DNA from: a bacterium
GTDB lineage: Bacteria > Patescibacteriota > Minisyncoccia > Minisyncoccales > UBA10102
NCBI GenBank assembly: GCA_030647485.1
Contig: JAUSJT010000001.1
Coordinates: forward strand, 12,947-76,946
DNA length: 64,000 nucleotides
Direction of reading: 5' to 3'
The notes beneath the pieces were generated by a model. It was given only the letters and a program-made list of their open reading frames with translations, was not told the origin of the DNA and did no database searches. Below, piece after piece: positions 8,750 through 41,312 of this stretch. A program made the translations under genes and the position numbers. The stretch's first letter is position 1; every line of letters begins with the position of its first letter.

Positions 8750-10486
8750 ATGATCAAGGAAGAAATTAAAAATCTCGTGCGACAAGCTTGTCTGAAGTTA
8801 GGTTTTCCCGTTGAAGAAATTGTGCTCGAACATCCAGAAAACGTGGAACACGGTGATTATTCAACAAACGTTGCTTTGGTTTTGGCAAAACAGCTCGGTA
8901 AAAAACCTCGCGAAGTAGCAGAAAACATAGCAAAAACTATAAACTACAAACTAAGAACTGTAAACTCTATAGAAAAGGTTGAGGTTGCGGGCCCCGGATT
9001 CATCAATTTTTTTCTGTCGAAAGAGTATTTCTTTGACGTTCTTTCTTCTATTCTCAAGAAGAAGGGAAAATATGGTGCAGGCTCCGAAAAGAAAAAGATC
9101 ATTGTAGAATATTCAAGTCCTAATATCGCAAAGCCCTTTGGCATCGGCCATCTTCGCTCAACCCTTATTGGCCAGGCAATCTATAATCTCTATACATTCT
9201 TAGGATATAAGACTATTGGCATTAACTACCCGGGAGACTGGGGGACTCCTCATGGGAAGATTTTGTACCAGTTGAAAGAAAAACTTTTGAAAGGGAAAAC
9301 CGAAAAAGAGAAAAAAGAAATATTAGATAAAATCACTGTCCAGGATTTAGAATCTCTATACGTAGCATTCCACCAGAACACGACTCTCCAAATGGAAGAA
9401 GGGGCACGACTCTGGTTTAAGAAGCTAGAACAAAAAGATACAGAAGCACGAAGCCTTTGGGAGAAGATGAGAGAGGTGAGTTTTAGAGAATTTGAAAGGA
9501 TTTATAGTCTTCTAAATGTGAAGATCGATCATGTTATTGGAGAAAGCTTCTTTGAAGACAAGATGGAGGTTGTGGTGGAGGACTTTAAGAAGAAGGGGCT
9601 TGCACAAGAAAGCCAGGGAGCCTTGATTGTTTCTTTCCCTAATGAAATTCTTCCTCCCGCAATGCTTTTGAAATCAGATGGAGCAACTACATACTTCACA
9701 AGAGACTTGGCGAATATGGAGTACAGAATCTCAAAGTGGAAGCCAGACGCTATTGTTATTGAAACGGGAGTAGAGCAAACCTTACATTTTCAGCAGGTAT
9801 TCCTTGCTTCAAAGCTCATTGGCTACGCAAAAGATGAAGAATTGGTCCATGCCTTTCATGGGTTGTATAGAACAAAAGAAGGAAAATTCTCCACAAGGAA
9901 GGGCCAGACCATTCATTTGGAAGATGTGTTAAGAGAAGCTATAAAAAAAGCCCATGAGATTATTGAGCAATCAGAAACTGTGCGCGGATTGAGTGAGCAG
10001 GAGAAAGCAGAAGTTGCAAAAGCAGTAGGGATCGGAGGAATCAAGTACAATGATCTTTCCCAGCATCCTTCAGGGGATATCGTGTTTGACTGGGGAAAGA
10101 TTCTGAACTTGAAAGGGAATTCAGCTCCCTACCTTCAGTACACGTATGCTAGATGCAAGAGTATCCTCCGCAAGTCCAAACTTAATCCCATTAAGTTTAA
10201 ACTTAATGGAGTTAAGTCATCCCCAGAGGAGATGGCGTTGCTTCGGCTGCTGTATCGATTTGAAGAGGTGGTGCAAGAAGCAGCAGAAAAGTTTTCTCCA
10301 AATCTCGTCTGTAATTTTGTGTTTGATCTTGCTCAACGGTATAACCTGTTTTACAACACTAATCCTGTGTTGAAGGCAGAAACCAAAGAATTAAAAGACT
10401 TTCGTTTGCTACTCACTGCCGCTGTTGCGCAGATTATTAAGAATGGTTTATCCCTTTTGGGTATTGCTGCCCCTGAAAGAATGTGA
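8750..10486 (+). CDS. argS: Arginyl-tRNA synthetase
   Basis: 578 aa. HGDYSTNVAL add-1 domain, class I HIGH-like SPNIAKPFGIGHLRS, and a C-terminal DALR anticodon-binding region. Confidence 0.95.
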   Translation: MIKEEIKNLVRQACLKLGFPVEEIVLEHPENVEHGDYSTNVALVLAKQLGKKPREVAENIAKTINYKLRTVNSIEKVEVAGPGFINFFLSKEYFFDVLSSILKKKGKYGAGSEKKKIIVEYSSPNIAKPFGIGHLRSTLIGQAIYNLYTFLGYKTIGINYPGDWGTPHGKILYQLKEKLLKGKTEKEKKEILDKITVQDLESLYVAFHQNTTLQMEEGARLWFKKLEQKDTEARSLWEKMREVSFREFERIYSLLNVKIDHVIGESFFEDKMEVVVEDFKKKGLAQESQGALIVSFPNEILPPAMLLKSDGATTYFTRDLANMEYRISKWKPDAIVIETGVEQTLHFQQVFLASKLIGYAKDEELVHAFHGLYRTKEGKFSTRKGQTIHLEDVLREAIKKAHEIIEQSETVRGLSEQEKAEVAKAVGIGGIKYNDLSQHPSGDIVFDWGKILNLKGNSAPYLQYTYARCKSILRKSKLNPIKFKLNGVKSSPEEMALLRLLYRFEEVVQEAAEKFSPNLVCNFVFDLAQRYNLFYNTNPVLKAETKELKDFRLLLTAAVAQIIKNGLSLLGIAAPERM

Positions 10487-10677
10487 TAGAATAAAAGTAT
10501 GACCAAATCACCATGCTGCTAACAAATACGTTAAAAACCTGGGCAAGCTTTGCTTCGAGTGTTGTACAGACCTGACGAGAGGATAGGTTTTATGTTTTGC
10601 CAATAATATTGAAACCTGCCCTCTCGGCAGGTTTTAAGTTGCTCTTTATAAGCCGAGAAGAAGGAGTTGTGAATACT

Positions 10678-10848
10678 ATGAATGCGGATACACAAGGGCC
10701 GACTAGCAAGGATCAAGACGAGGGGTTGACGCCTAGAGATCGTTTGGCGCTCCGATTTGAACGTATGGATAAGGAGTTAAAGAATCCGAACCTGATCCCG
10801 GATGAACGATACGCGATCGTTGCCCCATTCGTACACTGGATTGAGTAA
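10678..10848 (+). CDS. Small hypothetical protein (56 aa), GC-rich cassette
   Basis: SD GAAGGAG lies 8 nt before the ATG at 10678. Followed by GGCTATC/GATAGCC hairpin plus T-run. No recognisable motif. Confidence 0.4.
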   Translation: MNADTQGPTSKDQDEGLTPRDRLALRFERMDKELKNPNLIPDERYAIVAPFVHWIE

Positions 10849-10942
10849 GTCTTCGCCCCATAGCGTAAGGGGCTATCTATAATAGGATAGCCCTTTTTCT
10901 TTGCCGTTGAAAAAAAGAAGAAAAAATGATACTTTGTAAGAT

Positions 10943-13900
10943 ATGGAGATAAATTTTCCGAAACTTGAAGAAGAAGTTTTAGAGCGCTGGAAAAAGGAAA
11001 AAGCGTTTGAAAGATCAGTTTCTCGTAGAAAGACGGGCAAGCGTTTTGTGTTTTATGAGGGTCCTCCTACTGCAAACGGAAAACCTGGTATTCATCACGT
11101 GCTTTCTCGGGCTTTTAAGGATGTGATACTTCGCTACAAGACGATGAGGGGTTTTTTTGTTGAGAGAAGGGCTGGATGGGATACTCATGGGCTTCCCGTG
11201 GAGCTTCAAATTGAAAAGAAGCTTGGGTTAAAATCAAAGAAAGACATTGAGAAGTACGGAATTGCGCAATTCAACAAAGAGTGCAAGCAATCGGTATGGG
11301 AGTACAAGAAAGAGTGGGAAAACTTAACTGAACGCATGGGGTTTTGGATTGATCTTAAAGATCCCTACGTTACGTATGAGACTTCGTATATTGAAACTTT
11401 GTGGCGGATTATACAGAAATTCTGGCAGAAGGGTTTGTTGTACAAAGGACATAAGGTGATTTTGTATTGTTCACGATGCGGAACTTCTTTGTCTTCACAC
11501 GAGGTGGCACAGGGGTATAAGACCGTTGAAGACACTTCTATATACGTGAAGTTTAAGTTAAAGCCAGGGCAGAGGATAGGTGATTGGGCAACAGATGATT
11601 CCACCTATATCCTTTCTTGGACCACAACTCCCTGGACTTTGCCTGGCAATGTTGCCTTAGCAGTGGGAGAGAAAATCCAGTACGTTCGTGTCCAGCCCAA
11701 GGACATGAATGAAACATACATTCTTGCTAAAGATTTAGTTCGTACAGTTTTTAAGGAGTTTGATGGAGAAGAAGTTAGTTCTTTTAGTGGGAAAGACTTG
11801 ATTGATTTGTCGTATGAACAACTTTTTCCTATACTATCTCTTCGCAACGAGAAATCGCATAAAATCTATGCCGCAGATTTTGTTACAACAACAGACGGCA
11901 CCGGAGTTGTGCATACTGCGGTCATGTACGGGGAGGATGACTACAATCTTGGGGTGAAGGTTGGCCTGCCTCAGCATCACACCGTTACAGAAACTGGCGC
12001 GTTCACTCAAGAGATACCAGGAGGGCTTGCGGGGTTGCCCGTCAGAGTAAAAGAAACAGACGAAAAGATATTTGCATACCTCAAGGAGCATAATATGTTT
12101 CTTGCGACTTTAACGTATTCTCATGAGTATCCTTTCTGTTGGAGATGCTCCACTCCTCTATTGTACTACGCTAAAGACAGCTGGTTTGTGAATATGCAGA
12201 AAGTGAAGCAGGCCTTGATTGCGAATAATAAAAAGATTAATTGGGTCCCCTCTCATCTCAAAGAAGGGAGAATGGGAGAGTGGCTGCGAGAGGTGAAAGA
12301 CTGGGCGTTTTCCCGCGAGCGGTATTGGGGGACTCCATTGCCGATATGGGAATGTAAAAAGTGCGAGCACAGAGAGGTCATAGGTTCCCTTGAGGAGTTG
12401 CGAGAGAAAACCAGATCTTTGAACGTCTACTATTTGCTGCGCCATGGATACTCGGAAAAGCAGAGATTACACATTTCTTCTTCTTGGCCAGAGCCAGTGC
12501 CCATGCCCTTGCTCGCTCAAGGCGTGAAAGAAGCAGAAAAAGCAGCCCGCGCATTAAAGAAGAAAAATATTGATATCATTATCTCTTCAGATCTGCTTCG
12601 CACCAAGCAAACCGCTGAAATTGTAGGGAAAGAGCTTGGCGTTAAGGTTGTTTATGACCCGCTTATTCGAGAAGAAGACGCAGGCATATTTAATGGGAAA
12701 AACATAGAGGAAACAGGCAAGTTTTATCGGAAACCAGGAGAAACGCCCCTTGAGCACTATCTAAGACGATTTGAGATTGCTCGTCCCGAAGGAGAAAGCT
12801 GGCTTGATGTGCAGAAAAGAGCGCATCAGTTCATGAAGAATCTGGAAGAGAAGTATAGGGGCAAGTCAATCCTTATTGTAAGCCATTCTTTGGTTCTTGA
12901 ATTAATTGAGTCCACTATGCTTGGGCTTTCTCGGATTGAATTTGAAAAACGATGGATCAAGACCCATATAAAAAGTGGAGAATGGCGAAAGATCGCTTAT
13001 GCCGCTTTTCCTTACAATGAGAATATGGAAGTTGATCTTCATCGTCCTTACATTGATAATGTTGTGTTTTCATGCCCCGCATGCAAGACAGGCACTATGC
13101 AACGAGTGAAAGAGGTTGCTGACGTATGGTATGATTCTGGAGCCATGCCATTCGCTCAGGCCCACTGGCCTTTCGCGAAAAATCCGAAATCCGAAATCCG
13201 AAATCCGAAACCACCCATACTTTTTCCTGCAGACTATATCGTTGAGGGCATAGACCAGACCAGGGGATGGTTCTACACACTTCTTGCGGTTTCCACACTG
13301 CTTGGATTTAGCGCTCCATACAAAAACGTTATCTCTTTCAGCCATGTTTTGGACGAGAAGGGAGAAAAGATGTCCAAGTCCAAGGACAACGTGGTTGACC
13401 CCTGGGATATGATAAAAAAGTACGGCATTGACGCGGTGCGCTGGTACTTCTTTACCATGAACAATCCTGGGGATCCCAAACTTTTTTCTGAAAAGGATAT
13501 TCAGGAAGTTCTTCGCAAGTTCATACTCACCCTCTGGAATTCTTTTGTGTTCTTGAAAACCTATTGTCCTAAGCTTCGCTTAGGAACTCCTAAGCGAAGC
13601 TTAAGCAGCAACGTCTTAGACGAATGGATTTTATCGCGGCTTGTTGGGACAACTAAAGAAATAACGGAAAAGATGGACACGTATGACGTGACAGGAGCAG
13701 GAAGGAGTTTGGAGAGTTTTGTTATCAACGATCTTTCTCTTTGGTATATTAGGAGATCAAGGACACGATTCCAGAATCCCGAAAGTGTGAAAGATTTTAA
13801 AGAAGCATCGACAACGCTTTCTTTTGTCCTCTTGCAAACATCTAAACTTGCAGCTCCTTTTGTTCCCTTTCTTAGTGAACATATCCATGATGCTTTGCAA

Positions 13901-14494
13901 GCAAAGGGAAGCGTGCACTGGGAAGATTGGCCCTTCGACTCGCCCGCCAAAGGCGGCCTCGCTCAGGACAGGCCTAAGCAAGACAAAAAACTTGAAGCAG
14001 AAATGGCGCTAGTCCGTGATCTTGTCACGAAAGCGCTTGCAGAACGCGCAAAAGCGCAGCTCAAGGTGCGACAGCCCCTGTCCATCCTTATGATCAAGGG
14101 TAGTGGCAAGGAAATCCGAAAAGACCTTTTGACATTACTCAAAGACGAAATAAATGTGAAAGTGGTTGTGTTTGATAAAAATCTCAAGAATGAGGTTGAA
14201 TTGGATACAGCACTGACCCCCCAGCTAAAAGAAGAGGGCCAGGTACGGGAGATATTGAGAAGCATCCAGGGAATGAGAAAGGAAGCAGGATACAAGCCGC
14301 AGAATAAGATTGTTCTTTGGTATTCTGGAGATCAAGAGCTTTGCGCCCTCATTTCAAAAAACGCAGTTATTTTAAAAAAGAGCGTGGGCGCAAAAACCAT
14401 AAAACAAGGCATTCCAGAAAACGGAAAATCTGAAAAAGGAAAACAGATTTTATTCGAGGGCAAATCCCTGTGGCTTAGTATTCGCAAAATTTGA
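10943..14494 (+). CDS. ileS: Isoleucyl-tRNA synthetase (type 2-like) with an inserted histidine-phosphatase (PGAM-family) domain
   Basis: 1183 aa. HIGH region PPTANGKPGIHHVLSR, WAFSRERYWGTPLPIW, DLHRPYID, DVWYDSG, and KMSKS (13369-13383 region, protein KMSKSKDN). Insert at about aa 493-696 has RHG, SSDLLRTKQTAE, GESWLDVQKR and VSHS motifs. Confidence 0.95.
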   Translation: MEINFPKLEEEVLERWKKEKAFERSVSRRKTGKRFVFYEGPPTANGKPGIHHVLSRAFKDVILRYKTMRGFFVERRAGWDTHGLPVELQIEKKLGLKSKKDIEKYGIAQFNKECKQSVWEYKKEWENLTERMGFWIDLKDPYVTYETSYIETLWRIIQKFWQKGLLYKGHKVILYCSRCGTSLSSHEVAQGYKTVEDTSIYVKFKLKPGQRIGDWATDDSTYILSWTTTPWTLPGNVALAVGEKIQYVRVQPKDMNETYILAKDLVRTVFKEFDGEEVSSFSGKDLIDLSYEQLFPILSLRNEKSHKIYAADFVTTTDGTGVVHTAVMYGEDDYNLGVKVGLPQHHTVTETGAFTQEIPGGLAGLPVRVKETDEKIFAYLKEHNMFLATLTYSHEYPFCWRCSTPLLYYAKDSWFVNMQKVKQALIANNKKINWVPSHLKEGRMGEWLREVKDWAFSRERYWGTPLPIWECKKCEHREVIGSLEELREKTRSLNVYYLLRHGYSEKQRLHISSSWPEPVPMPLLAQGVKEAEKAARALKKKNIDIIISSDLLRTKQTAEIVGKELGVKVVYDPLIREEDAGIFNGKNIEETGKFYRKPGETPLEHYLRRFEIARPEGESWLDVQKRAHQFMKNLEEKYRGKSILIVSHSLVLELIESTMLGLSRIEFEKRWIKTHIKSGEWRKIAYAAFPYNENMEVDLHRPYIDNVVFSCPACKTGTMQRVKEVADVWYDSGAMPFAQAHWPFAKNPKSEIRNPKPPILFPADYIVEGIDQTRGWFYTLLAVSTLLGFSAPYKNVISFSHVLDEKGEKMSKSKDNVVDPWDMIKKYGIDAVRWYFFTMNNPGDPKLFSEKDIQEVLRKFILTLWNSFVFLKTYCPKLRLGTPKRSLSSNVLDEWILSRLVGTTKEITEKMDTYDVTGAGRSLESFVINDLSLWYIRRSRTRFQNPESVKDFKEASTTLSFVLLQTSKLAAPFVPFLSEHIHDALQAKGSVHWEDWPFDSPAKGGLAQDRPKQDKKLEAEMALVRDLVTKALAERAKAQLKVRQPLSILMIKGSGKEIRKDLLTLLKDEINVKVVVFDKNLKNEVELDTALTPQLKEEGQVREILRSIQGMRKEAGYKPQNKIVLWYSGDQELCALISKNAVILKKSVGAKTIKQGIPENGKSEKGKQILFEGKSLWLSIRKI
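12419..13030 (+). other. Histidine phosphatase superfamily (branch 1, PGAM-like) domain embedded in IleRS
   Basis: YYLLRHGYSE (RHG at 12440-12448), IIISSDLLRTKQTAEIV, PEGESWLDVQKRAHQF, ILIVSHSLVLE (His codon at 12884-12886). Flanked on both sides by canonical IleRS sequence in the same frame. Confidence 0.75.
13180..13207 (+). repeat. Tandem heptamer AAATCCG x4 inside ileS
   Basis: Read directly from the sequence. Encodes KNPKSEIRNPKP in a surface-loop position just after the conserved AQAHWPF. Confidence 0.9.
13568..13605 (+). repeat. 38-nt double-hairpin palindromic element (CCTAAGC type) in frame in ileS
   Basis: CCTAAGCTTCGCTTAGG-AACT-CCTAAGCGAAGCTTAAG encodes PKLRLGTPKRSLS. 34/38 identical to the element in pth (47901-47940). 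Confidence 0.85.
13929..13974 (+). repeat. TTCGACT...TCGCTCAGG element (expanded copy) in frame in ileS
   Basis: GGCCCTTCGACT-CGCCCGCCAAAGGCGGCC-TCGCTCAGGACAGGCC encodes PFDSPAKGGLAQDRP. Shares its ends with the copies at 39619 and 55170 and is followed by another CCTAAGC. Confidence 0.7.
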
Positions 14495-14565
14495 TTTTTT
14501 GAGTGATTTGTGCTACCTATAATATAGTTGAGAAAGCACATTCTTGGGTAGAGGAGGAATATCTC

Positions 14566-15012
14566 ATGGCGATTTCTGTAGGCTTTGAGGATCGCGTAGC
14601 CCGGGCTCTGGTGCAGTATGGGTTCATTACTGAGGCCCAACTGGATCAGGCGCGGAAGCAGGCAGGGGATCTCCTGGAGGCGCTGGTCTCCATGGGCTTC
14701 ATAGGCCGGGAGAGCCTCATCACTGCACTCTCTCTCCATCTGCGGGTGCCTGTGGTAGACCTGAAGCAAATGGAGGTAGATCCGGAGGCGGTGAAGCTGC
14801 TGCCGGAGAAGTACGCCCGGCAGTACAAGGTGTTGCCGGTTGGATTCGCCCCGGACGGCTCTTTGAGGGTAGTGACAAAGAGTCCAAATGACTTCCTGCT
14901 ATCGTCCCAACTCTCCTCAGCGACCGGGCGCCAGGTGCGGTTTGCCCTGGCTCTGGGCGAAGGGCTGGAGGTTCTTATCGACCGGTCCTACAGCCGCCTG
15001 GGGAGTCAATAG
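14566..15012 (+). CDS. Stand-alone T2SS/T4P ATPase N-terminal (GspE_N / MshEN-like) domain protein
   Basis: 148 aa from MAISVGF with SD GAGGAGG upstream. RVARALVQYGFITEAQLDQARKQ resembles the MshEN-type motif. A second half-repeat follows (LPEKYARQYKVLPV). No ATPase domain. Confidence 0.7.
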   Translation: MAISVGFEDRVARALVQYGFITEAQLDQARKQAGDLLEALVSMGFIGRESLITALSLHLRVPVVDLKQMEVDPEAVKLLPEKYARQYKVLPVGFAPDGSLRVVTKSPNDFLLSSQLSSATGRQVRFALALGEGLEVLIDRSYSRLGSQ

Positions 15013-16332: not shown

Positions 16333-17980
16333 ATTTACTCTTGTTTTAGCAGCAATTGCCTTGATCCTAGCTGGTCTGGGTGTTTGGTTCTGGCAGAAAA
16401 ACACCTATTCTACCGAGAATCTCAAGCTTGAGCTTTTGGCTCCCCAATCAGCTAGCATGGGAGAAGAGATTACATATACTATACGATACAAGAATAACGG
16501 GGATGCCAGACTCGAAAACGCCATGCTTATCTTTGAATACCCTTCAGGCTCCATGCCTTCTCAGGGAACGAATGGAAGATTAACACAATCCATAGAGGAT
16601 ATTTATCCCGGTCAGGAACAGAATCTTTCTTTCAAAGCCCGTCTTTTTGGTAAAGAGGGCGAGCTCAAAGAGGCAAAAGTATTGATGCAGTATACGCCAA
16701 AGAATCTGAATGCAAAGTTTGAATCAAATACGAGCGTAACCACAGGTATCTCTCAGGTTCCCCTGAACTTTGAGCTTGATCTTCCGTCTCGCACAGAAAG
16801 CTCCCAGGGCTTTACCTTTGATCTGAATTATTTCTCTAATTCAGAGTATCCGCTTTCAGATTTGAGAATTAAAATAGAGTATCCTGAAGGGTTTAAATTC
16901 CAGAGCGCCTCGCCAGTCCCTATCGGAGAAAACGAATGGAAGGTAGGCTTGCTGAACAAGGCTTCAGGAGGAAGAATTTCGGTCAAAGGCACTTTACAGG
17001 GAGAATCCCAGGAGGTAAAGATTTTTCGCGCAATCTTAGGGTCTTGGAAAGACGGAAAGTTCACCGTGTTCAAGGAAGCAGCCAAGGGTATTGAGATAAC
17101 CAATCTTAAGCTCTTGATTTCCCAGACCGTCAACGGATCTCCCAGCTATACCGCTTCTCCTGGAGATGCGCTCCATTACGTGCTTTCTTTTAAGAACGTA
17201 GATGAGAAGAGTCTGGAGAATCTGTTTCTGATTGTGAACCTTGAGGGCCGTCCCTTTGATTTGGCAAGCGTGAAGGCAGAGCAGGGAAAGTTTAAAGAAG
17301 GGGATACCTCCATTGTGTGGGAAGCAAAGGACGTTTCAAGGTTAAGATTCTTGGGAAAGGGGGAAGAAGGGAAAGTGGAGTTTTGGGTGAACGTGAAAGA
17401 AAATTGGGAAGTGTTCAGCTCACAAGACGAGAACTTCACGCTCCGCGACAAAGTCATTCTGTCTGACACAAAAGAAGAGTTTGAATTAAAGGTGAATTCC
17501 CGTCTTGTTGTAGAGCAGAGTACTCATTATCAAGACGAGGTGTTTGGCAATGCAGGCCCTCTTCCTCCGCAGGCAGGCGCTCAAACAACTTATACTGTCA
17601 TATGGCAGGTAAAGAACGTGTACAATGATGCAGAAAACGTGACGGTGCGAGCAACACTCCCTCAGGAGGTGAGTCTGACAGGAAAGATTTTTCCTGATAA
17701 CGCGCCCCTAACTCTAGATTCTGCTTCTCGCGAGATTGTGTGGAAAGTAGGAGACGTTCCAGCTGGGACAGGAACCTTTGACCCAATAACTTCCATTGCA
17801 TTCCAGGTTGCGTTTTTGCCCACCGCTTCTCAAAAGGGGAGTGTTGCACAGATTATAGGAGAAGCGAGAGTTCAGGGAAGCGATGTGTTTTCAGAACAAA
17901 CCCTTGCAGGTTCAAGCAAGCCGCTTACTACTAACCTTCCCGACGACCCTTCGGCCCAGGGAAAGGGCATTGTCCAATGA
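16319..17980 (+). CDS. Membrane-anchored extracytoplasmic protein with DUF11-like repeat (beta-sandwich) domains
   Basis: N-terminal TM helix (FTLVLAAIALILAGLGVWFW). Repeated motifs of the form ...Y.I.YKN.GDA.LENA / YVLSFKNVDEKSLENL / YTVIWQVKNVYNDAENV. Confidence 0.65.
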   Translation: MRLGRFTLVLAAIALILAGLGVWFWQKNTYSTENLKLELLAPQSASMGEEITYTIRYKNNGDARLENAMLIFEYPSGSMPSQGTNGRLTQSIEDIYPGQEQNLSFKARLFGKEGELKEAKVLMQYTPKNLNAKFESNTSVTTGISQVPLNFELDLPSRTESSQGFTFDLNYFSNSEYPLSDLRIKIEYPEGFKFQSASPVPIGENEWKVGLLNKASGGRISVKGTLQGESQEVKIFRAILGSWKDGKFTVFKEAAKGIEITNLKLLISQTVNGSPSYTASPGDALHYVLSFKNVDEKSLENLFLIVNLEGRPFDLASVKAEQGKFKEGDTSIVWEAKDVSRLRFLGKGEEGKVEFWVNVKENWEVFSSQDENFTLRDKVILSDTKEEFELKVNSRLVVEQSTHYQDEVFGNAGPLPPQAGAQTTYTVIWQVKNVYNDAENVTVRATLPQEVSLTGKIFPDNAPLTLDSASREIVWKVGDVPAGTGTFDPITSIAFQVAFLPTASQKGSVAQIIGEARVQGSDVFSEQTLAGSSKPLTTNLPDDPSAQGKGIVQ

Positions 17981-19320
17981 AAAAAAATTCAACCGTTGCG
18001 AATACTGATTTAATGCAGAACATCACTTCGCTTGCCAAGCGCAGGGGATTTATCTTTGCGGGATCTGATATCTACGGAGGGCTTGCCAATTCTTGGGATT
18101 ACGGCCCTTTGGGCGTTGAGTTAAAAAACAACATCAAGCAGGAGTGGTGGAGGCGTTTTGTCCAACAGAGAGCCGATGTAGTTGGCATTGACGCTGCTTT
18201 GTTGATGAATCCAAAAGTTTGGGAGGCGTCAGGACACCTTGCAAGCTTTACAGATCCCCTAGTTGAGTGCAAAACATGCCATGCCAGGCTTAGGGAAGAC
18301 CAACTTATTGACCGTACCTGCCTCAACTGCAAGGGTAAGGATTTTACTCCAACTAGGCAATTTAATATGATGCTCAAGACGTATCTTGGGCCTTCGGAAG
18401 AAAGCGCAAACACCGTATATTTTCGTCCTGAAACAGCGCAGGCAATGTTCGTGAACTTTAAGAATATTCTTGATACCAATCGCCCCAAGCTTCCTTTTGG
18501 CATAGCCCAGCAAGGAAAGGCGTTTCGCAACGAGATTACTCCTGGCAACTTTGTGTTCCGCATGCGGGAATTTGAGCAAATGGAGATTGAGTACTTTGTA
18601 AAAGAACGAGAATGGGAGAAGTATTTTGAACATTGGCTAGGAGAAATGAAGCAATGGTTGAAAGACCTCGGCGTTTCAGAAAAGAAGCTTCATTATGTTG
18701 ATATCCCAGACGGAGAGCGGGCCCACTATTCAAAGAGAACAGTGGATATTGAGTATGAATATCCTTTTGGTCAAAAGGAGTTGTATGGTTTGGCATACAG
18801 GGGAGATTTTGATCTCAAGAACCACATGCAAGCGAGTGGGCAAGATTTAAGGTACACGGATACTGAAACGCAAGAGAAATTCCTTCCTCACGTCATTGAA
18901 CCAACATGGGGCGTAGACCGGTCTGTATTGGTAGCTATGCTAGAAGCTTACCATGAAGAGGACGCACCCACGGCGGAAGAGGGCGAGAGCGCCAAACGTG
19001 TTGTGATGAAATTCCCTGCATGGTTAGCTCCGGTGAAGGTTGCGATTCTCCCGCTTTCCAAAAAAGAAGAATTGAGCAAAGTTGCAAAACCAATCTTTGA
19101 AACTCTGTCAAAACAATTCGTGTGCGAGTATGATGAGACCCAAAGCATTGGCAAAAGATATCGCAGACAGGACGAGATAGGGACGCCCCTTTGCATAACA
19201 GTAGATTTTGAAACTCTGCAGGATAATGCCGTCACTATTCGAGACAGAGATACAATGAAACAGGAAAGAATACTAGTGAAAGATCTAGCAGGCGAGGCCA
19301 CAAAGCGACTCCATGTTTGA
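17977..19320 (+). CDS. glyQS: Glycyl-tRNA synthetase (class II, dimeric GlyQS type)
   Basis: LAKRRGFIFAGSDIYGGLANSWDYGPLGVELKNNIK, FRNEITPGNFVFRMREFEQMEIEYF. Confidence 0.95.
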   Translation: MKKNSTVANTDLMQNITSLAKRRGFIFAGSDIYGGLANSWDYGPLGVELKNNIKQEWWRRFVQQRADVVGIDAALLMNPKVWEASGHLASFTDPLVECKTCHARLREDQLIDRTCLNCKGKDFTPTRQFNMMLKTYLGPSEESANTVYFRPETAQAMFVNFKNILDTNRPKLPFGIAQQGKAFRNEITPGNFVFRMREFEQMEIEYFVKEREWEKYFEHWLGEMKQWLKDLGVSEKKLHYVDIPDGERAHYSKRTVDIEYEYPFGQKELYGLAYRGDFDLKNHMQASGQDLRYTDTETQEKFLPHVIEPTWGVDRSVLVAMLEAYHEEDAPTAEEGESAKRVVMKFPAWLAPVKVAILPLSKKEELSKVAKPIFETLSKQFVCEYDETQSIGKRYRRQDEIGTPLCITVDFETLQDNAVTIRDRDTMKQERILVKDLAGEATKRLHV

Positions 19321-22721: not shown

Positions 22722-24191
22722 ATGACAAAGTTTTATATCACAACAGCAATCCCATATGTTAATGCCCCTCCGCATATCGGGCATGCTTTAGAGTTTGTAC
22801 AGACCGACGTCATTGCACGGTATCATCGCGAGAAGGGCGAGGAGGTTTTACTATTGTCTGGAAGCGACGAGAATGCCCTAAAGAATGTTCAGGCGGCCGA
22901 GAAAGCCGGAGTTCCCGTTCAGCAGTTTATTGATGAGAATGCCAGGTCTTTTGTTGAGTTAGCAGAAAAACTCAATATACAGTTTGATGTATTTCAGAAG
23001 GGGAGTAGCAAAGATCATCACACGTCGTCTCAGAAGCTCTGGGAGTTGTGCCAGAAAGCAGGGGACATCTACAAAAAGTCGTATGAAGGATTGTATTGCG
23101 TTGGCTGTGAAGCGTTTTATACGCCAGACGAGCTTAATAAAAATCAAGAATGCGTTGAGCATCCAGGCAGAAAGCTTGAAAGGGTTTCAGAAGAGAATTA
23201 TTTCTTTAAGCTTTCAAAGTATCAAGACAAGCTTATCAATCTCTTGGGAAAAGACGAGTTGCGCATTGTTCCCTCAACAAGGAAGAATGAAGTAATATCT
23301 TTCTTAAAACAGCCGTTGCAGGACATTAGCATTTCGCGTTCAAATGAACGAGCAAAAAACTGGGGCGTTCCAGTTCCAGGGGATGATAGTCAGAGAATAT
23401 ACGTTTGGTTTGACGCCCTCAATATTTACCAATCCGGAATTGGGTTTGGGCTCAATGAAGAAAAATACAAGAAATGGTGGCCGGCAGATGTACATGTGAT
23501 AGGGAAGGGCATCATTCGTTTCCATGCGATATACTGGCCAGCATTTCTTTTGTCTGCAGGATTGCCTTTGCCAAAAACTCTATTTGTTCATGGATATTTA
23601 ACGGTTGGCGGGCAGAAAATGTCAAAGAGTTTAGGAAATGTAGTAGATCCATTTCCTTTGATTGAAAAATACGGAGCTGACGCCGTACGGTATTTCTTGC
23701 TGCGGGAAATTCCTTCCGCAGAAGATGGAGACTTCACCGAGGAAAAATTCGTTGAGAGATACAACGCAGATTTAGCGTCGGGTCTAGGGAATTTGGTTGC
23801 GAGAGTGCTTACCTTAAGCACGAAATTCGAAATTCGAAATTCGAAATCACCGCTTCAGCGGGATCTCGTAACGGCGGGACAAATTCAAAATTCAAATCTT
23901 CAGAAACTTCTGGAAGAAACACGAGAAAAAACAGAGAAAGCTTTGGATGATTTTCAATTTAGTTCTGCGCTTGAGGCGATATGGGAAGTTATTCATTTTT
24001 GCGACAAATACATTGAAGAAAAGAAGCCTTGGACAGAATCAGAAGGTCAGAAAAATGTTCTTGGTGATTTGTTGTGTGCCCTTCAGGAGATAGCAAATTC
24101 CTTAGCCCCATTTCTCCCGGAAACTTCAGAAAAAATCAAAGTTCAGCTTTCCGGAGGAGAAAGAGTTTCTCTTTTTCCCCGTCTTGATTAA
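22722..24191 (+). CDS. metG: Methionyl-tRNA synthetase (no C-terminal tRNA-binding appendage)
   Basis: TTAIPYVNAPPHIGHALE (HIGH) and KMSKSLGN. Zinc knuckle CVGCEAFY..ECVEHPG. Confidence 0.95.
   Translation: MTKFYITTAIPYVNAPPHIGHALEFVQTDVIARYHREKGEEVLLLSGSDENALKNVQAAEKAGVPVQQFIDENARSFVELAEKLNIQFDVFQKGSSKDHHTSSQKLWELCQKAGDIYKKSYEGLYCVGCEAFYTPDELNKNQECVEHPGRKLERVSEENYFFKLSKYQDKLINLLGKDELRIVPSTRKNEVISFLKQPLQDISISRSNERAKNWGVPVPGDDSQRIYVWFDALNIYQSGIGFGLNEEKYKKWWPADVHVIGKGIIRFHAIYWPAFLLSAGLPLPKTLFVHGYLTVGGQKMSKSLGNVVDPFPLIEKYGADAVRYFLLREIPSAEDGDFTEEKFVERYNADLASGLGNLVARVLTLSTKFEIRNSKSPLQRDLVTAGQIQNSNLQKLLEETREKTEKALDDFQFSSALEAIWEVIHFCDKYIEEKKPWTESEGQKNVLGDLLCALQEIANSLAPFLPETSEKIKVQLSGGERVSLFPRLD
23823..23843 (+). 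repeat. Tandem heptamer AAATTCG x3 (plus AAATTCA x2 at about 23881-23894) inside metG
   Basis: Read directly from the sequence. Encodes FEIRNSKSP...QIQNSNLQ in the linker of the anticodon-binding domain. Confidence 0.9.
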
Positions 24192-26845: not shown

Positions 26846-29254
26846 ATGGAACAGTATATCCCTGAAAAAATTGAGAAGAAATGGAGGGGAGTTTGGGAGC
26901 GGAAAAAACTCTGGAAGGTTGATATAAAGAAGGCAAAACGCCCCTACTACAATCTCATGATGTTCCCGTATCCTTCGGCTGAAGGATTGCATGTGGGGAA
27001 CGTATATGCATTCACTGGCTCTGACATCCACGGAAAGTTCCAGAGGATGCAGGGTTTTGACGTATTTGAGCCCATGGGTTTTGATGCTTTTGGCATTCAT
27101 TCTGAAAACTTTGCCATTAAAAAAGGAGTGCATCCTAAGGTGCAGACCGCAAAGAACATCAAGCATTTTACCGAACAGTTAAAGCAACTAGGTTCGCTCT
27201 TTGCGTGGGATCATGCGCTGACAACTTCAGAGCCCGAGTATTATAAATGGACCCAGTGGTTGTTTTTACAACTGTATAAAGCGGGATTAGCATACAGGGC
27301 TAAGGCCCCAGTTGACTGGTGTCCCTCATGTAAGACCGTGCTTGCAGACGAGCAGGTCATCAACGGGAAATGCGAGCGATGCTCATCTGAAGTACTCCAA
27401 AAAGAAACAGAGCAGTGGTTTTTTAAGATTACCAAGTATGCAGATAGGTTATTAAAGAATTTAGAGACGATTGACTGGTCAGAACGCACCAAAATTGCCC
27501 AGAAGAATTGGATAGGAAAATCTGAAGGTGCACAACTTAAGTTTCCAGTGAAAAATTCAAACGCAAAAATTGAAGTATTCACCACGAGACCAGACACCCT
27601 CTTTGGGGCAACTTATATGGTATTGGCTCCAGAGCATAAGTTTGTAGACGAACTCAAAGCTCAAATCGTGAATTGGGGAGAGGTGCAAGTATATAGAGAT
27701 GCGGCAAAAAAGAAAAGCGAACTAGAACGCGCAGAGTTTGCAAAAGAAAAGAGCGGAGTAGAATTGAAGGGAGTGAGGGCAATTAACCCTGCTTCGAAAG
27801 AAGAAATCCCAGTGTTTATTGCGGATTATGTATTAGCTTCGTATGGGACTGGGGTTATTATGGCAGTTCCAGCTCATGACGAACGCGATTTTGAATTTGC
27901 AAAAAAGTATGGTCTTGCGATTACCATTGTTGTATGCCCGCACTATCCAGAAAAAACGTGTCCAATTCTCGATAAGGCATACGTTGGCGAGGGCCATTTG
28001 GTTGGGTCAGGGCAGTTTGACGGCATGTCTTCTGAAAAAGCACGGCAGGAGATTACAAAGTTTGTGGGAGGGGAAAAGACCGAAAGATATCACCTTCGCG
28101 ACTGGCTTATTTCCCGCCAGCGCTATTGGGGTCCTCCAATACCAATTATCTATTGCGCAAAGTGTGGAACGGTTCCGGTGCCGGAGAAAGACCTTCCAGT
28201 AAAGCTTCCTTTTGTGAAAGAATACCGTCCCGAAGGCACAGGGAAGTCTCCCTTGGCTTCCGTATCTAGTTTTGTGAATACAAAATGCCCGCAGTGCAAA
28301 GGTAAAGCTGAAAGAGAGACTGACGTATCAGACACATTCTTGGATTCTGCGTGGTATTTCTTCAGATATCCTTCTTCTGATTACAAGAAAGGGCCCTTTG
28401 ATGAGGGTATTACCAAAAAATGGCTGCCAGTGGATATGTATATTGGAGGACAAGAGCATGCAGTGTTGCACCTGCTGTATACGAGGTTTATCACCATGGT
28501 ATTGCACGACCTCGGCTTTGCCGACTTTGAAGAGCCATTCAAGAAGTTCCGCGCGCATGGCCTCTTAACAAAAGACGGAGCTAAAATGTCTAAGTCCAAG
28601 GGCAACGTGGTAAACCCGGATGAATACTTTGTAAAGTACGGAGCAGACACGGTGCGCATGTATTTAATGTTCATTGGTCCTCTGGCCGAAGCAGGAGACT
28701 GGTCAGACAAAGGCATTGTGGGCATTTTCAGATTTTTGAACAGGGTGTGGACATTAGCGCAGGAGATGAAGAGGGAGAAACCGAAGGGGAAGGGATTGGA
28801 AACGGTGCGCCACAAAACCATCAAAAAAGTCACAGAAGATATCCAGAACCTTAGGTACAACACTGCGATTGCAGTCCTCATGGAATATCTCAATGAAATC
28901 TTGGGAAAGAAAACGGAAGCTTCCTTGGAAGATCTCGAAACGCTGCTTATTCTTTTAGCTCCCTTTGCTCCGCATGTTCCAGAGGAGCTTTGGAACCAAT
29001 TAGGGCATAAAGACAGCGTGCATAACCAGCCGTGGCCTAAGTATGATCCAAAGCTTGTCCAAGAAGAAAAAATTCGCCTCGTGGTGCAAATAAATGGCAA
29101 AGTGCGGGATATTATTGAGGTTCAAGCAGGCATTTCCGAACAAGAAGCAAAAGAATTGGCTTTAAAAAATGAAAAAATCCAAAAATGGTTGCAAGGAAAG
29201 TTGCCAAAGCGTGTAATCTTTGTACCAGAGCGATTAATCAATATAGTGGCGTAA
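26846..29254 (+). CDS. leuS: Leucyl-tRNA synthetase
   Basis: 802 aa. FPYPSAEGLHVGNVYAF (HIGH-like), KMSKSKGN, and CP1 editing-domain motifs (TTRPDTLFGATYMVLAPEH). Confidence 0.95.
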   Translation: MEQYIPEKIEKKWRGVWERKKLWKVDIKKAKRPYYNLMMFPYPSAEGLHVGNVYAFTGSDIHGKFQRMQGFDVFEPMGFDAFGIHSENFAIKKGVHPKVQTAKNIKHFTEQLKQLGSLFAWDHALTTSEPEYYKWTQWLFLQLYKAGLAYRAKAPVDWCPSCKTVLADEQVINGKCERCSSEVLQKETEQWFFKITKYADRLLKNLETIDWSERTKIAQKNWIGKSEGAQLKFPVKNSNAKIEVFTTRPDTLFGATYMVLAPEHKFVDELKAQIVNWGEVQVYRDAAKKKSELERAEFAKEKSGVELKGVRAINPASKEEIPVFIADYVLASYGTGVIMAVPAHDERDFEFAKKYGLAITIVVCPHYPEKTCPILDKAYVGEGHLVGSGQFDGMSSEKARQEITKFVGGEKTERYHLRDWLISRQRYWGPPIPIIYCAKCGTVPVPEKDLPVKLPFVKEYRPEGTGKSPLASVSSFVNTKCPQCKGKAERETDVSDTFLDSAWYFFRYPSSDYKKGPFDEGITKKWLPVDMYIGGQEHAVLHLLYTRFITMVLHDLGFADFEEPFKKFRAHGLLTKDGAKMSKSKGNVVNPDEYFVKYGADTVRMYLMFIGPLAEAGDWSDKGIVGIFRFLNRVWTLAQEMKREKPKGKGLETVRHKTIKKVTEDIQNLRYNTAIAVLMEYLNEILGKKTEASLEDLETLLILLAPFAPHVPEELWNQLGHKDSVHNQPWPKYDPKLVQEEKIRLVVQINGKVRDIIEVQAGISEQEAKELALKNEKIQKWLQGKLPKRVIFVPERLINIVA

Positions 29255-31084: not shown

Positions 31085-32119
31085 ATGAAACTTTTTGAAT
31101 ATCAAGGGAAGGATTTATTTAAAAAATATGGCATTCAGGTGCCACACTCTGTTCTGCTTGATAAGCCCATGGAGGGAATTTCTTTGGGTTTTCCAGTGGT
31201 GGCAAAGTCGCAGGTGCTATCCGGCGACAGGAAAAAGAAAGGAGGAATTCGAATTATTGAGACGAAAGAACAACTTCCAGGAGAACTGAATACCCTATTC
31301 AAGACAGAAATTGATGGAGCTCTTCCGGGGCACGTGCTAGTGGAAGAAAGAATTGAGTATTTAAAAGAATGGTATGTGAGTTTTACCTATGATACAGACA
31401 AGAGATGTCCTGTAATCGCTGTTTCGGGAAAAGGAGGAATGGGCGTTGATTCTGCAACGATCGTTGAGCTCCAGTGGCTGCAGGGTCACTGGGGATTGCC
31501 CTCTTTAGATGCCCCCTTTAGGGAAGTTGCCCAGAAGTTGTTAAATCTTTTTGAGCAAGAACACGCATTGCTTGCAGAGATAAACCCACTGTTTGAATTA
31601 GATAATGGCGTTTTCATAGCAGGAGACGCAAAAGTTATTTTAGACGATAACGTCGTTGATCCTTTATTTCGTCCCTTTCTGGACTTGCCAGGAGATATCG
31701 CAATCTTAGCTTCAGGAGGAGGGGCTTCCCTTATCAATTTAGACGCATTAATCTTAGCAGGAGGAAAGCCGGCAAACTATGTTGAATATTCTGGAAACCC
31801 TCCTGCTTCTATAGTAGAAGAATTGACAGTAAAAGTTTTATCAAAGCCGGGGCTAAGAGGTTGCTGGACAGTTGGGGGAACTGCTAACTTCACCGATATT
31901 TTTGAAACTCTTTCTGGGTTTGTGCGGGGGCTTCGTAGAGTAACTCCAAAGCCAACCTATCCCATTGTGATTCGTCGAGATGGCCCACGCCAAAAGGAGG
32001 CGTTTGAGATGCTTGAGCGGATTGCGAAAGAAGAAGGATATGATTTTCATATCTTTGGTCCCGAAACCCCTATGGCAGAATCCGCAAAAATTGTAGTACA
32101 GTTAGCGTACAAGTCATGA
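31085..32119 (+). CDS. Succinyl-CoA synthetase beta-like ATP-grasp subunit (citryl-CoA synthetase / ACL small-subunit-like)
   Basis: MKLFEYQGKDLFKKYGIQVP is a typical SucC/AclB N-terminus. C-terminal CoA-ligase domain. At 344 aa it is shorter than SucC. Confidence 0.8.
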   Translation: MKLFEYQGKDLFKKYGIQVPHSVLLDKPMEGISLGFPVVAKSQVLSGDRKKKGGIRIIETKEQLPGELNTLFKTEIDGALPGHVLVEERIEYLKEWYVSFTYDTDKRCPVIAVSGKGGMGVDSATIVELQWLQGHWGLPSLDAPFREVAQKLLNLFEQEHALLAEINPLFELDNGVFIAGDAKVILDDNVVDPLFRPFLDLPGDIAILASGGGASLINLDALILAGGKPANYVEYSGNPPASIVEELTVKVLSKPGLRGCWTVGGTANFTDIFETLSGFVRGLRRVTPKPTYPIVIRRDGPRQKEAFEMLERIAKEEGYDFHIFGPETPMAESAKIVVQLAYKS

Positions 32120-40927: not shown

Positions 40928-41266
40928 TTATATAGCGGGAGTTTTATTTTCAAATCCTTTTCTCCATCCGCCAAGCATCCTCCCTATTTCATTTAAGTGT
41001 TCAGAAAGAGCGATATATTTTTTGCTATCTAACGCTTTTATTTCCCACGCAACCTGCAGAAAGAACTTGAGCACGTCAAGCTTAAGAAGCCCTCGTTTAA
41101 TATGCGGCAGTTTCTCTTGTTTTGAGAGATAGCTCGCGATGACTATGCTTTCTAATACTTCAACAAAGAAAGAATCAATTTTTTCTCCCAACGTGTACAG
41201 TGAGGTTTTCGGAAAATGTGGAAGGTATGCCTGCCAAAGTTTGTATGTTGCAACTAATTTTTGCAA
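40928..41266 (-). CDS. avd: Avd-like accessory protein (four-helix-bundle / 23S rRNA-intervening-sequence protein family), TTG start
   Basis: 112 aa. FPKTSLYTLGEKIDSFFVEVLESIVIA ... LSEHLNEIGRMLGGWRK is typical of this family. Lies between TR and RT but on the opposite strand. Confidence 0.7.
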   Translation of the reverse strand: MQKLVATYKLWQAYLPHFPKTSLYTLGEKIDSFFVEVLESIVIASYLSKQEKLPHIKRGLLKLDVLKFFLQVAWEIKALDSKKYIALSEHLNEIGRMLGGWRKGFENKTPAI

Positions 41267-41282
41267 AACAGATAAACCCGTT

Positions 41283-41292
41283 GGGGGGGGGG
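41283..41292. repeat. G10 homopolymer tract in the 46-nt avd-RT divergent spacer
   Basis: ttGGGGGGGGGGct read directly from the sequence, 21 nt upstream of the RT ATG. Confidence 0.9.
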
Positions 41293-41312
41293 CTTACCTG
41301 CAAAGAGTTTGT

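Follow-up and report, generated by a model that had tools for sequence, protein, structure and literature searches.

Few protein architectures are as strongly conserved as the cores of class I aminoacyl-tRNA synthetases, and the recognised insertions in them (CP1 editing, CP2 and CP3) all serve, to our knowledge, tRNA handling. The ileS gene described here raises the question of why an isoleucyl-tRNA synthetase (IleRS) carries a phosphatase inside this core, where the domain came from and what it might do there. The gene occupies positions 10943..14494 of a 64,000-nucleotide stretch of patescibacterial DNA (the window), on the forward strand like all features below. A preliminary description of this DNA, made from the sequence, had reported an apparently intact histidine phosphatase embedded in a continuous IleRS reading frame. 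The frame is indeed continuous: a single uninterrupted ORF of 1183 aa encodes a type-2 IleRS, nested phosphatase included.

The host can be recognised from the protein on both sides of the insert. TIGR00392 (ileS) matches the whole protein with 847.1 bits (cut-off 621.4) in two stretches that flank the insert. The AF2 model of the full-length IleRS (pLDDT 90.3, pTM 0.83) most closely resembles two PDB entries, 8c8v (IleRS2 of Priestia (P.) megaterium, TMt 0.82) and 1ile (IleRS of Thermus (T.) thermophilus, TMt 0.91). Assignment to IleRS2 follows from DUF5915, which spans aa 1026-1182, and from a structure closer to 8c8v (Foldseek E=1e-89) than to the IleRS1 structure 8c9e (E=1e-54). The CP1 editing domain is present, and its WTTTPWT (aa 226-232), H324 and D333, which we take from T. 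thermophilus IleRS to be the editing residues, are invariant in an 80-sequence alignment. The class I HIGH motif has the non-canonical GXHH form GIHH (aa 49-52, sequence NGKPGIHHVLSR, 11087..11098), whose H51 and H52 are likewise invariant across the 80 sequences; this signature variant of IleRS2 has been documented and is functional (PMC10485003). The CP3 zinc knuckle is built from C471 and C474 (12353..12364), just N-terminal of the insert, and from C711 and C714 (13073..13084), C-terminal of it. Both CxxC pairs are invariant, and CP3 with its zinc motif has been described for T. thermophilus IleRS (PMC7191050). The KMSKS motif and the anticodon-binding region follow normally, as had been claimed: KMSKS lies at aa 809-813 (13367..13381), with K809, M810, S811 and K812 invariant and the motif present in 34/35 fused loci, and Anticodon_1 (Pfam) covers aa 893-1048, downstream of the insert and in normal order. 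The mupirocin-resistance enzymes MupA and MupB were rejected as identities (819 and 817 bits vs. the NCBIfam exception cut-off of 1900). Judged by these motifs and domains, the host is a canonical type-2 IleRS in which GXHH/KMSKS, the CP1 editing site, and the anticodon-binding and type-2 C-terminal domains are intact, and isoleucine-specific aminoacylation is predicted for it.

The inserted His_Phos_1, PhoE-like domain occupies aa 494-689 (12422..13009), with boundaries taken from alignment with an unfused relative (P0128, 80% identical). The preliminary description had placed it at residues 493-696; nucleotides 12419-13030 correspond exactly to that range, but the domain is about 7 residues shorter at its C-terminal end. 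The segment AFPYNENME is IleRS sequence outside the insert, and its counterpart in unfused relatives is ALPHDENGE. The domain sits in a surface loop that separates the two CxxC pairs of the CP3 zinc knuckle. In relatives lacking the insert, the site spans 9-11 residues, which agrees with the short linker expected there and rules out that the segment is a normal IleRS subdomain; the site itself, however, belongs to the zinc-knuckle subdomain and is not just a linker. The proposed profile check returned a strong match to Pfam His_Phos_1 (PF00300; aa 497-670, E=2.4e-33, 115.9 bits, gathering threshold 21.7), which cuts the tRNA-synt_1 (Rossmann-fold) match in two, and the insert searched alone reached E=1e-34. 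What was inserted corresponds end to end to an entire stand-alone protein of related genomes, with a near-zero linker at both ends.

The motifs quoted earlier (LLRHGYSE, SSDLLRTKQTAE, IREEDAGIFNGK, GESWLDVQKR and ILIVSHS) are all found in the translation, and the Arg/His/His set is retained. In the RHG motif (12440..12448), R500 and H501, the latter the predicted phospho-acceptor nucleophile, align with R10 and H11 of PhoE and are present in 115/115 fused homologues, against 113/115 for G502. The second phosphate-binding Arg, R553 (12599..12601), lies within SSDLLRTKQTAE, aligns with the Arg in PhoE TSTSGRALETAE and is kept in 115/115, as is the second catalytic His, H648 in ILIVSHS (12884..12886), which aligns with the His in PhoE LIVTHG. 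The predicted general acid/base E577 (12671..12673) aligns with the Glu in PhoE LREIHLG; of the 115 sequences, 99 have E at this position and 16 have D. Mean insert identity is just 47%, yet the catalytic positions are kept, and these residues appear to be under purifying selection. The insert has a pLDDT of 86-97 inside the full-length AF2 model and of 93.9 when modelled alone, and it is predicted to be an independently folding domain. We infer its catalytic competence from sequence and predicted fold. At the level of sequence, a complete branch-1 histidine phosphatase, in frame and embedded in the class I core of a canonical IleRS, is confirmed.

Which phosphatase this might be can be narrowed to a family. 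Profile score, catalytic core and predicted alpha/beta fold place the insert among the branch-1 histidine phosphatases (PF00300). In Foldseek the domain model reached TM 0.75-0.79 with probability 1.00 to GpgP, PspA, CobC and dPGM, and profile matches to structures of PhoE, PspA, CobC, GpgP and dPGM had E-values of 3e-26 to 3e-20; the fold search gave no discrimination among dPGM, CobC, PspA, GpmB and SixA. These nearest relatives (PhoE, PspA, CobC, GpgP and dPGM) are all small-molecule enzymes, and the insert keeps the cap region typical of such enzymes. Several specific identities were tried against curated models (NF038349, TIGR01258 and others for the mutases) and rejected: dPGM (dPGM_arch 67-70 bits vs. 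225, pgm_1 32.9 vs. 81.7), CobC, alpha-ribazole phosphatase (TIGR03162; 78-82 bits vs. cut-off 162.9), PspA, metal-independent phosphoserine phosphatase (NF045917; 72-76 bits vs. cut-off 350), and GpmB, whose score falls under the curated cut-off. Around the second catalytic His, mutases as a rule have HGN, whereas the insert reads SHS and its family SHE/SHQ. Because the insert scores below every NCBIfam equivalog cut-off, a substrate is not transferable from its PhoE-type relatives. The superfamily also contains protein phosphatases, and the domain might, like SixA, PGAM5 or Sts-1, act on a phosphoprotein, with IleRS itself or a different translation factor as its target. Such a regulatory role is very unlikely, since the match to SixA, phosphohistidine phosphatase (TIGR00249), is weak (32.5 bits vs. 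74.5, N-terminal 70 residues only) and reflects superfamily relatedness only, so that SixA was rejected, the best matches are small-molecule enzymes, and the conserved neighbourhood shows no evident kinase partner.

An unusual architecture in a metagenomic contig could also be an artefact or a degenerate insertion: the contig may be chimeric, or the insert an intein-like mobile element or a structural spacer without activity. Beyond prior caution, what points that way is one related contig, L001 (57.7 kb; P0013, 536 aa), visibly fragmented in ileS and carrying an inverted duplicate where the contig ends. It was rejected as a split gene, and its fragmentation is most likely an assembly or frameshift problem. 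Against this stands that 114 of the 120 closest protein clusters and about 144 of the top 150 representatives at 50% identity have the insert with the same junctions, in data from many studies and many assemblers; because the insert recurs in independent assemblies, which run to hundreds, chimeric assembly and chance are excluded. The catalytic residues are invariant, which argues against an inactive spacer. The junctions (TRSL/NVYY and AYAAF/PYNE) are without splice residues: the N-junction has no C/S/T nucleophile, the C-junction has no HN before C/S/T, and no Pfam match to an intein or Hint family was found in the insert. An intein or mobile element was rejected on these junction residues and on the orthology of the insert to a cellular gene. 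Taken as a whole, an artefact or degenerate insertion is exceedingly improbable. The insert is common to well over a hundred lineages and widespread in Paceibacteria/Parcubacteria, so that the survey suggested for Patescibacteria finds it not peculiar to this genome. Fused proteins are already in nr and UniRef, often named just 'class I tRNA ligase family protein'. A full-text literature search that included IleRS phylogenomic papers, with thin coverage of subscription journals, returned no mention of a phosphatase within IleRS, in line with the earlier remark that such a module in a class I synthetase core was not known to have been described.

The origin of the insert can be read from gene order. 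Other Paceibacteria have a stand-alone orthologue of ~195 aa between argS and ileS, 45-52% identical over its full length, and in fused genomes the argS-ileS slot is without a phosphatase gene; the insert is this relocated operon neighbour gene, taken in whole. A survey of the best 80 loci in GTDB species genomes, all from Patescibacteria-type MAGs except L016 and L070, found the domain inside ileS in 34 loci and the phosphatase gene directly upstream of ileS in 27. At 15 further loci ileS lies in the same locus as the phosphatase. In most of these 15 the phosphatase gene is upstream, one or two ORFs before ileS (ORF maps checked, n=4); L035 and L038 are fused and have a second copy besides, and in L039 ileS is on the opposite strand. 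Four of the best 80 loci are without ileS, and in three of them the contig ends just past the phosphatase gene. In six loci the reading frames of the stand-alone gene and ileS share 1-3 nt at the ileS start.

In the window, argS (arginyl-tRNA synthetase; 8750..10486, a 578-aa ORF) opens the conserved argS-(phosphatase)-ileS cluster, and most related loci likewise have an argS homologue upstream of ileS. The spacer between the two genes (10487..10942) is the slot of the stand-alone phosphatase gene in related genomes. Within it lie a short conserved ORF (10597-10848) and a hairpin resembling a terminator, and it matches the equivalent spacer of L002 at ~80% of positions. No phosphatase remnant or second copy was found in it by tblastn with the insert (up to E=10), and no Rfam family or Pfam match either. 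At the Rfam gathering threshold, no T-box or other known leader RNA precedes ileS; over the whole window, Rfam gave a single tRNA only. The two positions of the phosphatase are mutually exclusive: argS and ileS are a median of 32 nt apart in fused loci, against 561 nt or more where the gene stands alone.

The direction and number of fusion events were read from the host. The phosphatase-domain tree (185 columns) has fused and free forms interleaved and is too noisy to polarise events; hence a bootstrapped tree of the IleRS core (884 columns) was used, both trees being neighbour-joining only. This tree places the stand-alone state at its root, supports the main fused clade with a bootstrap value of 65%, and recovered monophyly of all fused forms in 0/200 replicates. 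Fusion thus looks derived, and it probably happened more than once. Seven proteins have two phosphatase copies, and the full catalytic set is found in 14/15 aligned copies, the exception being copy 1 of P0383, whose RHG motif falls outside the aligned segment. Copies occupy at least three sites in IleRS: CP3, between WFDSG and DQxRGWF, and after KMSKS. Conversely, at least three close lineages (P0125/7/8, P0130/P0133 and P0150) have cleanly lost the insert with IleRS cores 71-80% identical, and no His_Phos gene lies within 10 kb on either side in the three insert-free neighbourhoods inspected. Because of these clean losses in close relatives, the domain is not required for IleRS function.

Both gains and losses bear on whether the phosphatase does anything for its host. 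Candidate roles put forward earlier were action on a nucleotide by-product or on a tRNA end, and a regulatory or moonlighting part. It may be a passenger or moonlighting protein, that is, a housekeeping small-molecule phosphatase or mutase (e.g., of the phosphoserine, 3-PGA or sugar-phosphate type) captured from the upstream position into a permissive loop, with fusion amounting to co-expression only. This explanation is possible, though we lean away from it. Its nearest sequence and structure relatives are metabolic enzymes of the PhoE, PspA, CobC, GpgP and dPGM kind, the clean losses leave IleRS unchanged, and CP3 is variable and peripheral. The argS-ileS-recO-proS region is strongly syntenic across related genomes, so the adjacency of argS, ileS and phosphatase could be inherited and not functional. 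In interrupted clusters the stand-alone gene stays with argS in 9 loci and with ileS in 8; since argS is retained as often as ileS, neighbourhood alone does not tie the phosphatase to ileS. A passenger, however, is not expected to be captured repeatedly, as the lack of monophyly among fused lineages suggests, nor to be added as second copies with the catalytic set at two further IleRS sites; plain gene duplication would have met a need for more enzyme. Moreover, no fusion to the other neighbour, ArgRS, or to any other partner was seen among the best hits, and the start-codon overlaps suggest translational coupling and stoichiometric co-translation with IleRS.

We favour, with a probability of roughly 0.55, that the phosphatase is an autonomous phosphomonoesterase tethered to IleRS by selection. 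Selected tethering would make it an accessory partner of IleRS and not an accidental passenger, one that is conditionally dispensable. In the ancestry of this genome, the stand-alone gene left its tightly packed argS-phosphatase-ileS slot and was inserted whole, almost linker-free, into ileS at the CP3 zinc-knuckle loop. Catalysis would proceed via a phospho-His501 intermediate, with R500, R553 and H648 holding the phosphate and E577 acting as acid/base. The substrate would most probably be a small phosphorylated metabolite or nucleotide. The phosphatase would do its work anchored at CP3, on the periphery of the catalytic body, and aminoacylation would proceed as in other IleRS2 enzymes. We know of no step in IleRS chemistry that needs a phosphomonoesterase.

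The position of the insert invites a more specific role at the tRNA end. It lies ~25 residues past the CP2-3 linker, which in yeast IleRS lines the tRNA A76/reveromycin pocket, and the repeated accretion of domains with the catalytic set round the catalytic body fits a benefit from proximity. Tethered beside the pocket for the tRNA CCA end, the domain might free A76 of a 2'/3'-phosphate or pyrophosphate that blocks it, or hydrolyse a phosphorylated nucleotide or adenylate-mimicking inhibitor competing at the synthetic site. Toxic RelA/SpoT-homologue enzymes pyrophosphorylate tRNA 3' ends. This repair reaction is nonetheless unlikely: the cap region typical of small-molecule enzymes is retained, we know of no branch-1 histidine phosphatase that acts on RNA 3' ends, nothing explains a specificity for tRNA-Ile, and the domain is dispensable in close relatives. 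Somewhat less doubtful, but still speculative, is the broader idea of a dedicated aminoacyl-tRNA synthetase (aaRS) accessory activity, in which the phosphatase, tethered or bound beside the synthetic site, clears phosphorylated species that block isoleucylation. Candidates for such a species are tRNA whose 3' end carries a phosphate or pyrophosphate, a phosphorylated nucleotide and an inhibitor that mimics the adenylate.

Selected tethering, the reading preferred here, can be compared with known systems on both sides of the fusion. As a whole, the host resembles IleRS2 (P. megaterium 8c8v and T. thermophilus 1ile, TMt 0.82-0.91) and shares the Rossmann/HUP core, the CP1 editing, CP2, CP3 zinc-knuckle, anticodon-binding and type-2 C-terminal domains; unlike any solved or described IleRS, it holds a catalytic domain within CP3. 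The insert shares fold, a size of ~200 aa and the catalytic set with PhoE of Geobacillus stearothermophilus (1h2e/1ebb), PspA (4ij5), CobC (6nru), GpgP/Rv2419c (4pz9) and the small dPGM 1fzt. PhoE-type enzymes are free-standing or homodimeric and metabolic, whereas the domain in the window is nested in IleRS and the orthologue in relatives is operon-coupled to it. Precedent comes from the bifunctional RNase H/acid phosphatase (NF005567, PRK07238) of the Mycobacterium tuberculosis Rv2228c type, in which a nucleic-acid enzyme is joined to a CobC/PhoE-like His_Phos_1 domain. NF005567 is the second-best NCBIfam match of the insert (E=1e-22; 81 bits vs. cut-off 326), but there the fusion is end to end and to an unrelated partner, whereas the domain described here is nested. 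Another curated IleRS with an extra catalytic domain, ileS_w_GNAT (NF040702), differs in the domain added (a GNAT N-acetyltransferase) and in the IleRS lineage, and the window protein scores 324 bits against its cut-off of 1999. In human IARS1, CP3 is the docking surface for the UNE-L domain of LARS1 (PMC13439101), so that the same peripheral subdomain attaches a protein module in both enzymes; the human attachment is non-covalent, vertebrate-specific and to a non-catalytic partner, whereas the insert is covalent and predicted to be catalytic. CP3 has been described as a peripheral, structurally variable subdomain (PMC7191050), and by analogy it appears to tolerate add-ons.

A second, unrelated catalytic domain in CP3 is unexpected, and it is conserved across a major group of the ultra-small Patescibacteria. 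It was recruited from an operon neighbour, probably more than once and sometimes in two copies. The accessory activity, if real, would add a new class of repair or protection to the hydrolytic editing known in aaRS. Many essential IleRS genes of this type carry the label 'class I tRNA ligase family protein', and metabolic reconstructions could as a result appear to lack IleRS. Since fused, split and deleted states are found in close relatives, these genomes offer a natural experiment on what an aaRS gains from a tethered phosphatase.

The window's isoleucyl-tRNA synthetase (IleRS) gene, ileS (10943–14494, forward strand), is a single, unbroken ORF of 1183 aa in the ORF listing, in keeping with the continuous reading frame claimed in the preliminary description. 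Its product scores 847 bits with NCBIfam TIGR00392 (isoleucine-tRNA ligase; cut-off 621), and Pfam finds tRNA-synt_1 in two stretches (E = 2e-115), DUF5915 at aa 1026–1182 and, at aa 893–1048, Anticodon_1, the anticodon-binding region said to follow the insert. Nested within it is a histidine-phosphatase domain (His_Phos_1, PF00300, aa 497–670; E = 2.4e-33, 115.9 bits, far over the cut-off of 21.7), and the phosphatase motifs quoted earlier were all found in the ORF translation. The insert had been placed at residues 493–696, which map exactly to nt 12419–13030; when the protein is aligned globally with P0128, an 80% identical relative that lacks the insert, its extent narrows to one 196-residue gap at aa 494–689 (nt 12422–13009). 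The segment AFPYNENME, formerly counted in the insert, belongs to IleRS, because unfused relatives carry ALPHDENGE there. The full-length AF2 model (pLDDT 90.3, pTM 0.83; ten-residue blocks of the insert at 86–97 pLDDT) superposes on the IleRS2 of P. megaterium (8c8v, TMt 0.82) and on T. thermophilus IleRS (1ile, TMt 0.91). The host is therefore an ordinary type-2 IleRS to which one further domain, folding independently, has been added.

The insert is flanked by C471/C474 on its N-terminal side and by FSCPACKTG with C711/C714 on its C-terminal side, all four cysteines being invariant among 80 homologues. The host segment here is CP3, the stretch between the CP2-3 linker (WxxSRxRYWG) and the Rossmann fold's second half; in published IleRS structures it is a peripheral subdomain of variable structure, with a zinc motif in the T. 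thermophilus enzyme (PMC7191050; PMC7955072). The CP2-3 linker forms part of the wall of the pocket that takes the tRNA 3' end (PMC7955072), and human IARS1 uses CP3 to dock a LARS1 domain (PMC13439101). In the window's IleRS, the HIGH motif of class I synthetases reads GIHH (11087–11098, aa 49–52), of the non-canonical GXHH form tied to mupirocin hyper-resistance in IleRS2 (PMC10485003). Among related loci, GXHH occurs in 30/35 fused versus 23/37 stand-alone-type IleRS, the remainder having HYGH or HIGH apart from two fused sequences with a gap at the motif. The second class I signature motif takes an unusual form, EMHKS instead of KMSKS, in 15 of the 37 stand-alone-type loci; this clade (L003, L004, L017, L034, L037, L043, L050 and others), with the phosphatase gene upstream, also has PWLDAG where others have VWFDSG.

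The catalytic Arg/His/His set, described earlier as apparently retained, is conserved across 115 fused sequences, although the insert averages 47% identity to the window protein versus 60% for the IleRS core. R500, H501, R553 and H648 are kept in all 115, E618 in 114, G502 in 113 and T557 in 111; position 577 is E in 99 and D in 16. In alignment with PhoE, they match its catalytic Arg/His, Arg, Glu and His, and PhoE also leads the family-profile ranking (PhoE 3e-26, PspA 3.5e-24, CobC 2.5e-22, small S. pombe dPGM 3e-20). A domain-only model (pLDDT 93.9) superposes equally well, at TM 0.75–0.79, on GpgP/Rv2419c-type hydrolases, PspA, CobC and dPGMs, and the insert falls under the cut-off of every NCBIfam equivalog. 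The insert is therefore a putative branch-1 enzyme of generic character, belonging with those that act on small molecules. It is predicted to be an active phosphomonoesterase acting via phospho-H501, most likely on a small molecule.

The fused form is widespread. Among the 120 top-ranking clusters at 90% identity from a full-protein search, 114 have PF00300 in the same position; they are labelled Wildermuth-, Yanofsky-, Wolfe-, Nealson-, Pacebacteria, Minisyncoccia and Parcubacteria. A junction-spanning query against 1.84 billion 50%-identity representatives gave 207 matches at E<=1e-30; the insert is present in 145 of the best 150, about 144 of which are joined to IleRS sequence and 67 full-length. 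This recurrence across clusters and representatives therefore excludes chimeric assembly. One fused fragment, P0007 (537 aa, 1.6-kb contig), is labelled 'Nanoarchaeota archaeon' in NCBI, reflecting either a binning error or transfer to DPANN archaea; L016 (Humimicrobiaceae) and L070 (Elusimicrobia) likewise carry non-Patescibacteria labels. At locus L001 (6001–8752), ileS is broken into 175-aa and 536-aa pieces, with a second His_Phos_1 piece and a tRNA-synt_1 piece on the opposite strand at the contig end, which looks like an inverted-duplicate assembly artefact. The window's IleRS sequence is already in NCBI nr, identical, as 'MAG: class I tRNA ligase family protein [bacterium]'. Many fused proteins (P0121 and others) bear only 'class I tRNA ligase family protein' rather than isoleucine-tRNA ligase, and fused fragments are named 'histidine phosphatase family protein'; insert-free relatives are named correctly. 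As the preliminary description had supposed, no account of a phosphatase in IleRS was found in a full-text literature search of incomplete coverage, so that a prior description may exist, and none turned up when some recent IleRS phylogenomic and structural papers were text-searched.

Many stand-alone proteins of 195–205 aa, 45–52% identical to the insert along their entire length, were returned by the junction-spanning search. Two of their genes, on long contigs, sit directly 5' of an ileS that lacks the insert, giving the order argS-phosphatase-ileS. The inserted segment corresponds to the stand-alone protein from residue 2 (xNxYYxLRHG) to the C-terminus (IKTGExRKL), almost linker-free. With the family alignment as query, 489 relatives were confirmed in GTDB species genomes, and the best 80 were classified; except for L016 and L070, these are Patescibacteria-type MAGs by their record labels. 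The domain is inside ileS at the CP3 site in 34 of the 80, and a separate phosphatase gene lies directly 5' of ileS in 27. Another 15 have ileS elsewhere in the locus, mostly with the phosphatase upstream and 1–2 ORFs between (ORF maps checked for four); they include L035 and L038, fused with a second copy, and L039, with ileS on the opposite strand. No ileS is visible in the last 4, and in three of these the contig stops right after the phosphatase gene. Between argS and ileS, fused loci have a median gap of 32 nt (<=101 nt in 19/25) and stand-alone loci one of at least 561 nt (median 682, about the size of the phosphatase gene). The fused and separate-gene positions are mutually exclusive. 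At six loci the stand-alone gene runs 1–3 nt into the start codon of ileS. The insert is orthologous to the neighbouring gene and originates from a relocated operon neighbour. The window's own argS-ileS spacer (10487–10942) is unusually long for a fused locus, at 456 nt. It shares about 80% of its positions with the corresponding spacer of the insert-free locus L002, and it holds an 83-aa ORF without a Pfam match (10597–10848), a conserved hairpin CCTGCCCTCTCGGCAGG and, just 5' of ileS, a terminator-like stem followed by a T-run.

Accretion and loss have both occurred repeatedly. On an IleRS core tree (72 loci, 884 columns), from which event polarity was read, the root is stand-alone by Fitch parsimony and the state changes four times. 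NJ bootstrapping supports the main fused clade, whose 32 taxa include the window, at 65%; a clade uniting all fused forms appears in 0/200 replicates, and the fused loci L058, L068 and L083 never fall within the main clade. Seven proteins of 1270–1470 aa, among them L035 (2145–6248) and L038 (5504–9607), carry two phosphatase domains, with the full catalytic set in 14 of 15 aligned copies (the RHG motif of P0383 copy 1 lies outside the aligned segment). Both copies are within CP3, between RYWG.P and WFDSG, in P0315, P0352, P0368 and P0383; in L035 and L038, whose two copies are 42% identical, the second one is placed between WFDSG and DQxRGWF, and in P0259 and P0340 it follows KMSKS. Conversely, six clusters among the window's closest relatives (IleRS cores 71–80% identical) lack the insert and branch among fused forms within a clade of 11 tips. 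In the insert-free loci examined (L002, L086, L087), gene order otherwise matches the window, and no His_Phos gene was found within 10 kb on either side.

Other features of the window were also recorded. Aminoacyl-tRNA synthetase genes are unusually dense at 8750–29254, with five in about 20 kb (ArgRS, IleRS, a class II ProRS-like gene at 17977–19320, MetRS at 22722–24191 and LeuRS at 26846–29254), and their order is kept in relatives. Just after ileS, a 169-aa ORF with an MshEN domain (14503–15012; E = 6e-17) has a GC content of 0.59–0.61 versus about 0.42 around it; it is missing from the otherwise syntenic L087, where a DUF5674 gene directly follows ileS, and looks like a recently acquired fragment. 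Three adjacent genes at 31085–33728 (ATP-grasp_2 with Citrate_bind; CoA_binding with Ligase_CoA; a citrate synthase C-terminal domain) look like ATP-citrate lyase or citryl-CoA synthetase/lyase in split form, a set unexpected for a Patescibacteria genome of reduced metabolism. A reverse transcriptase (RVT_1) gene lies at 41139–42308; in L003 (3313–4819), an RVT_1 gene follows a bAvd gene, as is typical of diversity-generating retroelements.

The physical association of phosphatase and IleRS was probably selected rather than accidental, because capture was recurrent and at several IleRS sites, stand-alone genes can extend into the start of ileS, and no fusions to ArgRS or other partners were found among the best matches of the junction-spanning search. 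Four points speak against selection: the insert is dispensable in close relatives; where the cluster is broken, the stand-alone gene remains beside argS (9 loci) no less often than beside ileS (8 loci); the strong synteny of the whole region means that adjacency could reflect descent; and no IleRS step is known to require a phosphatase. A pure passenger is the less likely reading, though a substantial one. Repair of tRNA ends or nucleotides and a role as a protein phosphatase jointly take up the small remaining probability. The synthetase and the phosphatase fold are both known; their arrangement is nested, recurrent and operon-derived, and it appears not to have been characterised before. In the reading we prefer, at a probability of roughly 0.55, the phosphatase would serve as an accessory partner of IleRS, acting on a predicted small substrate.
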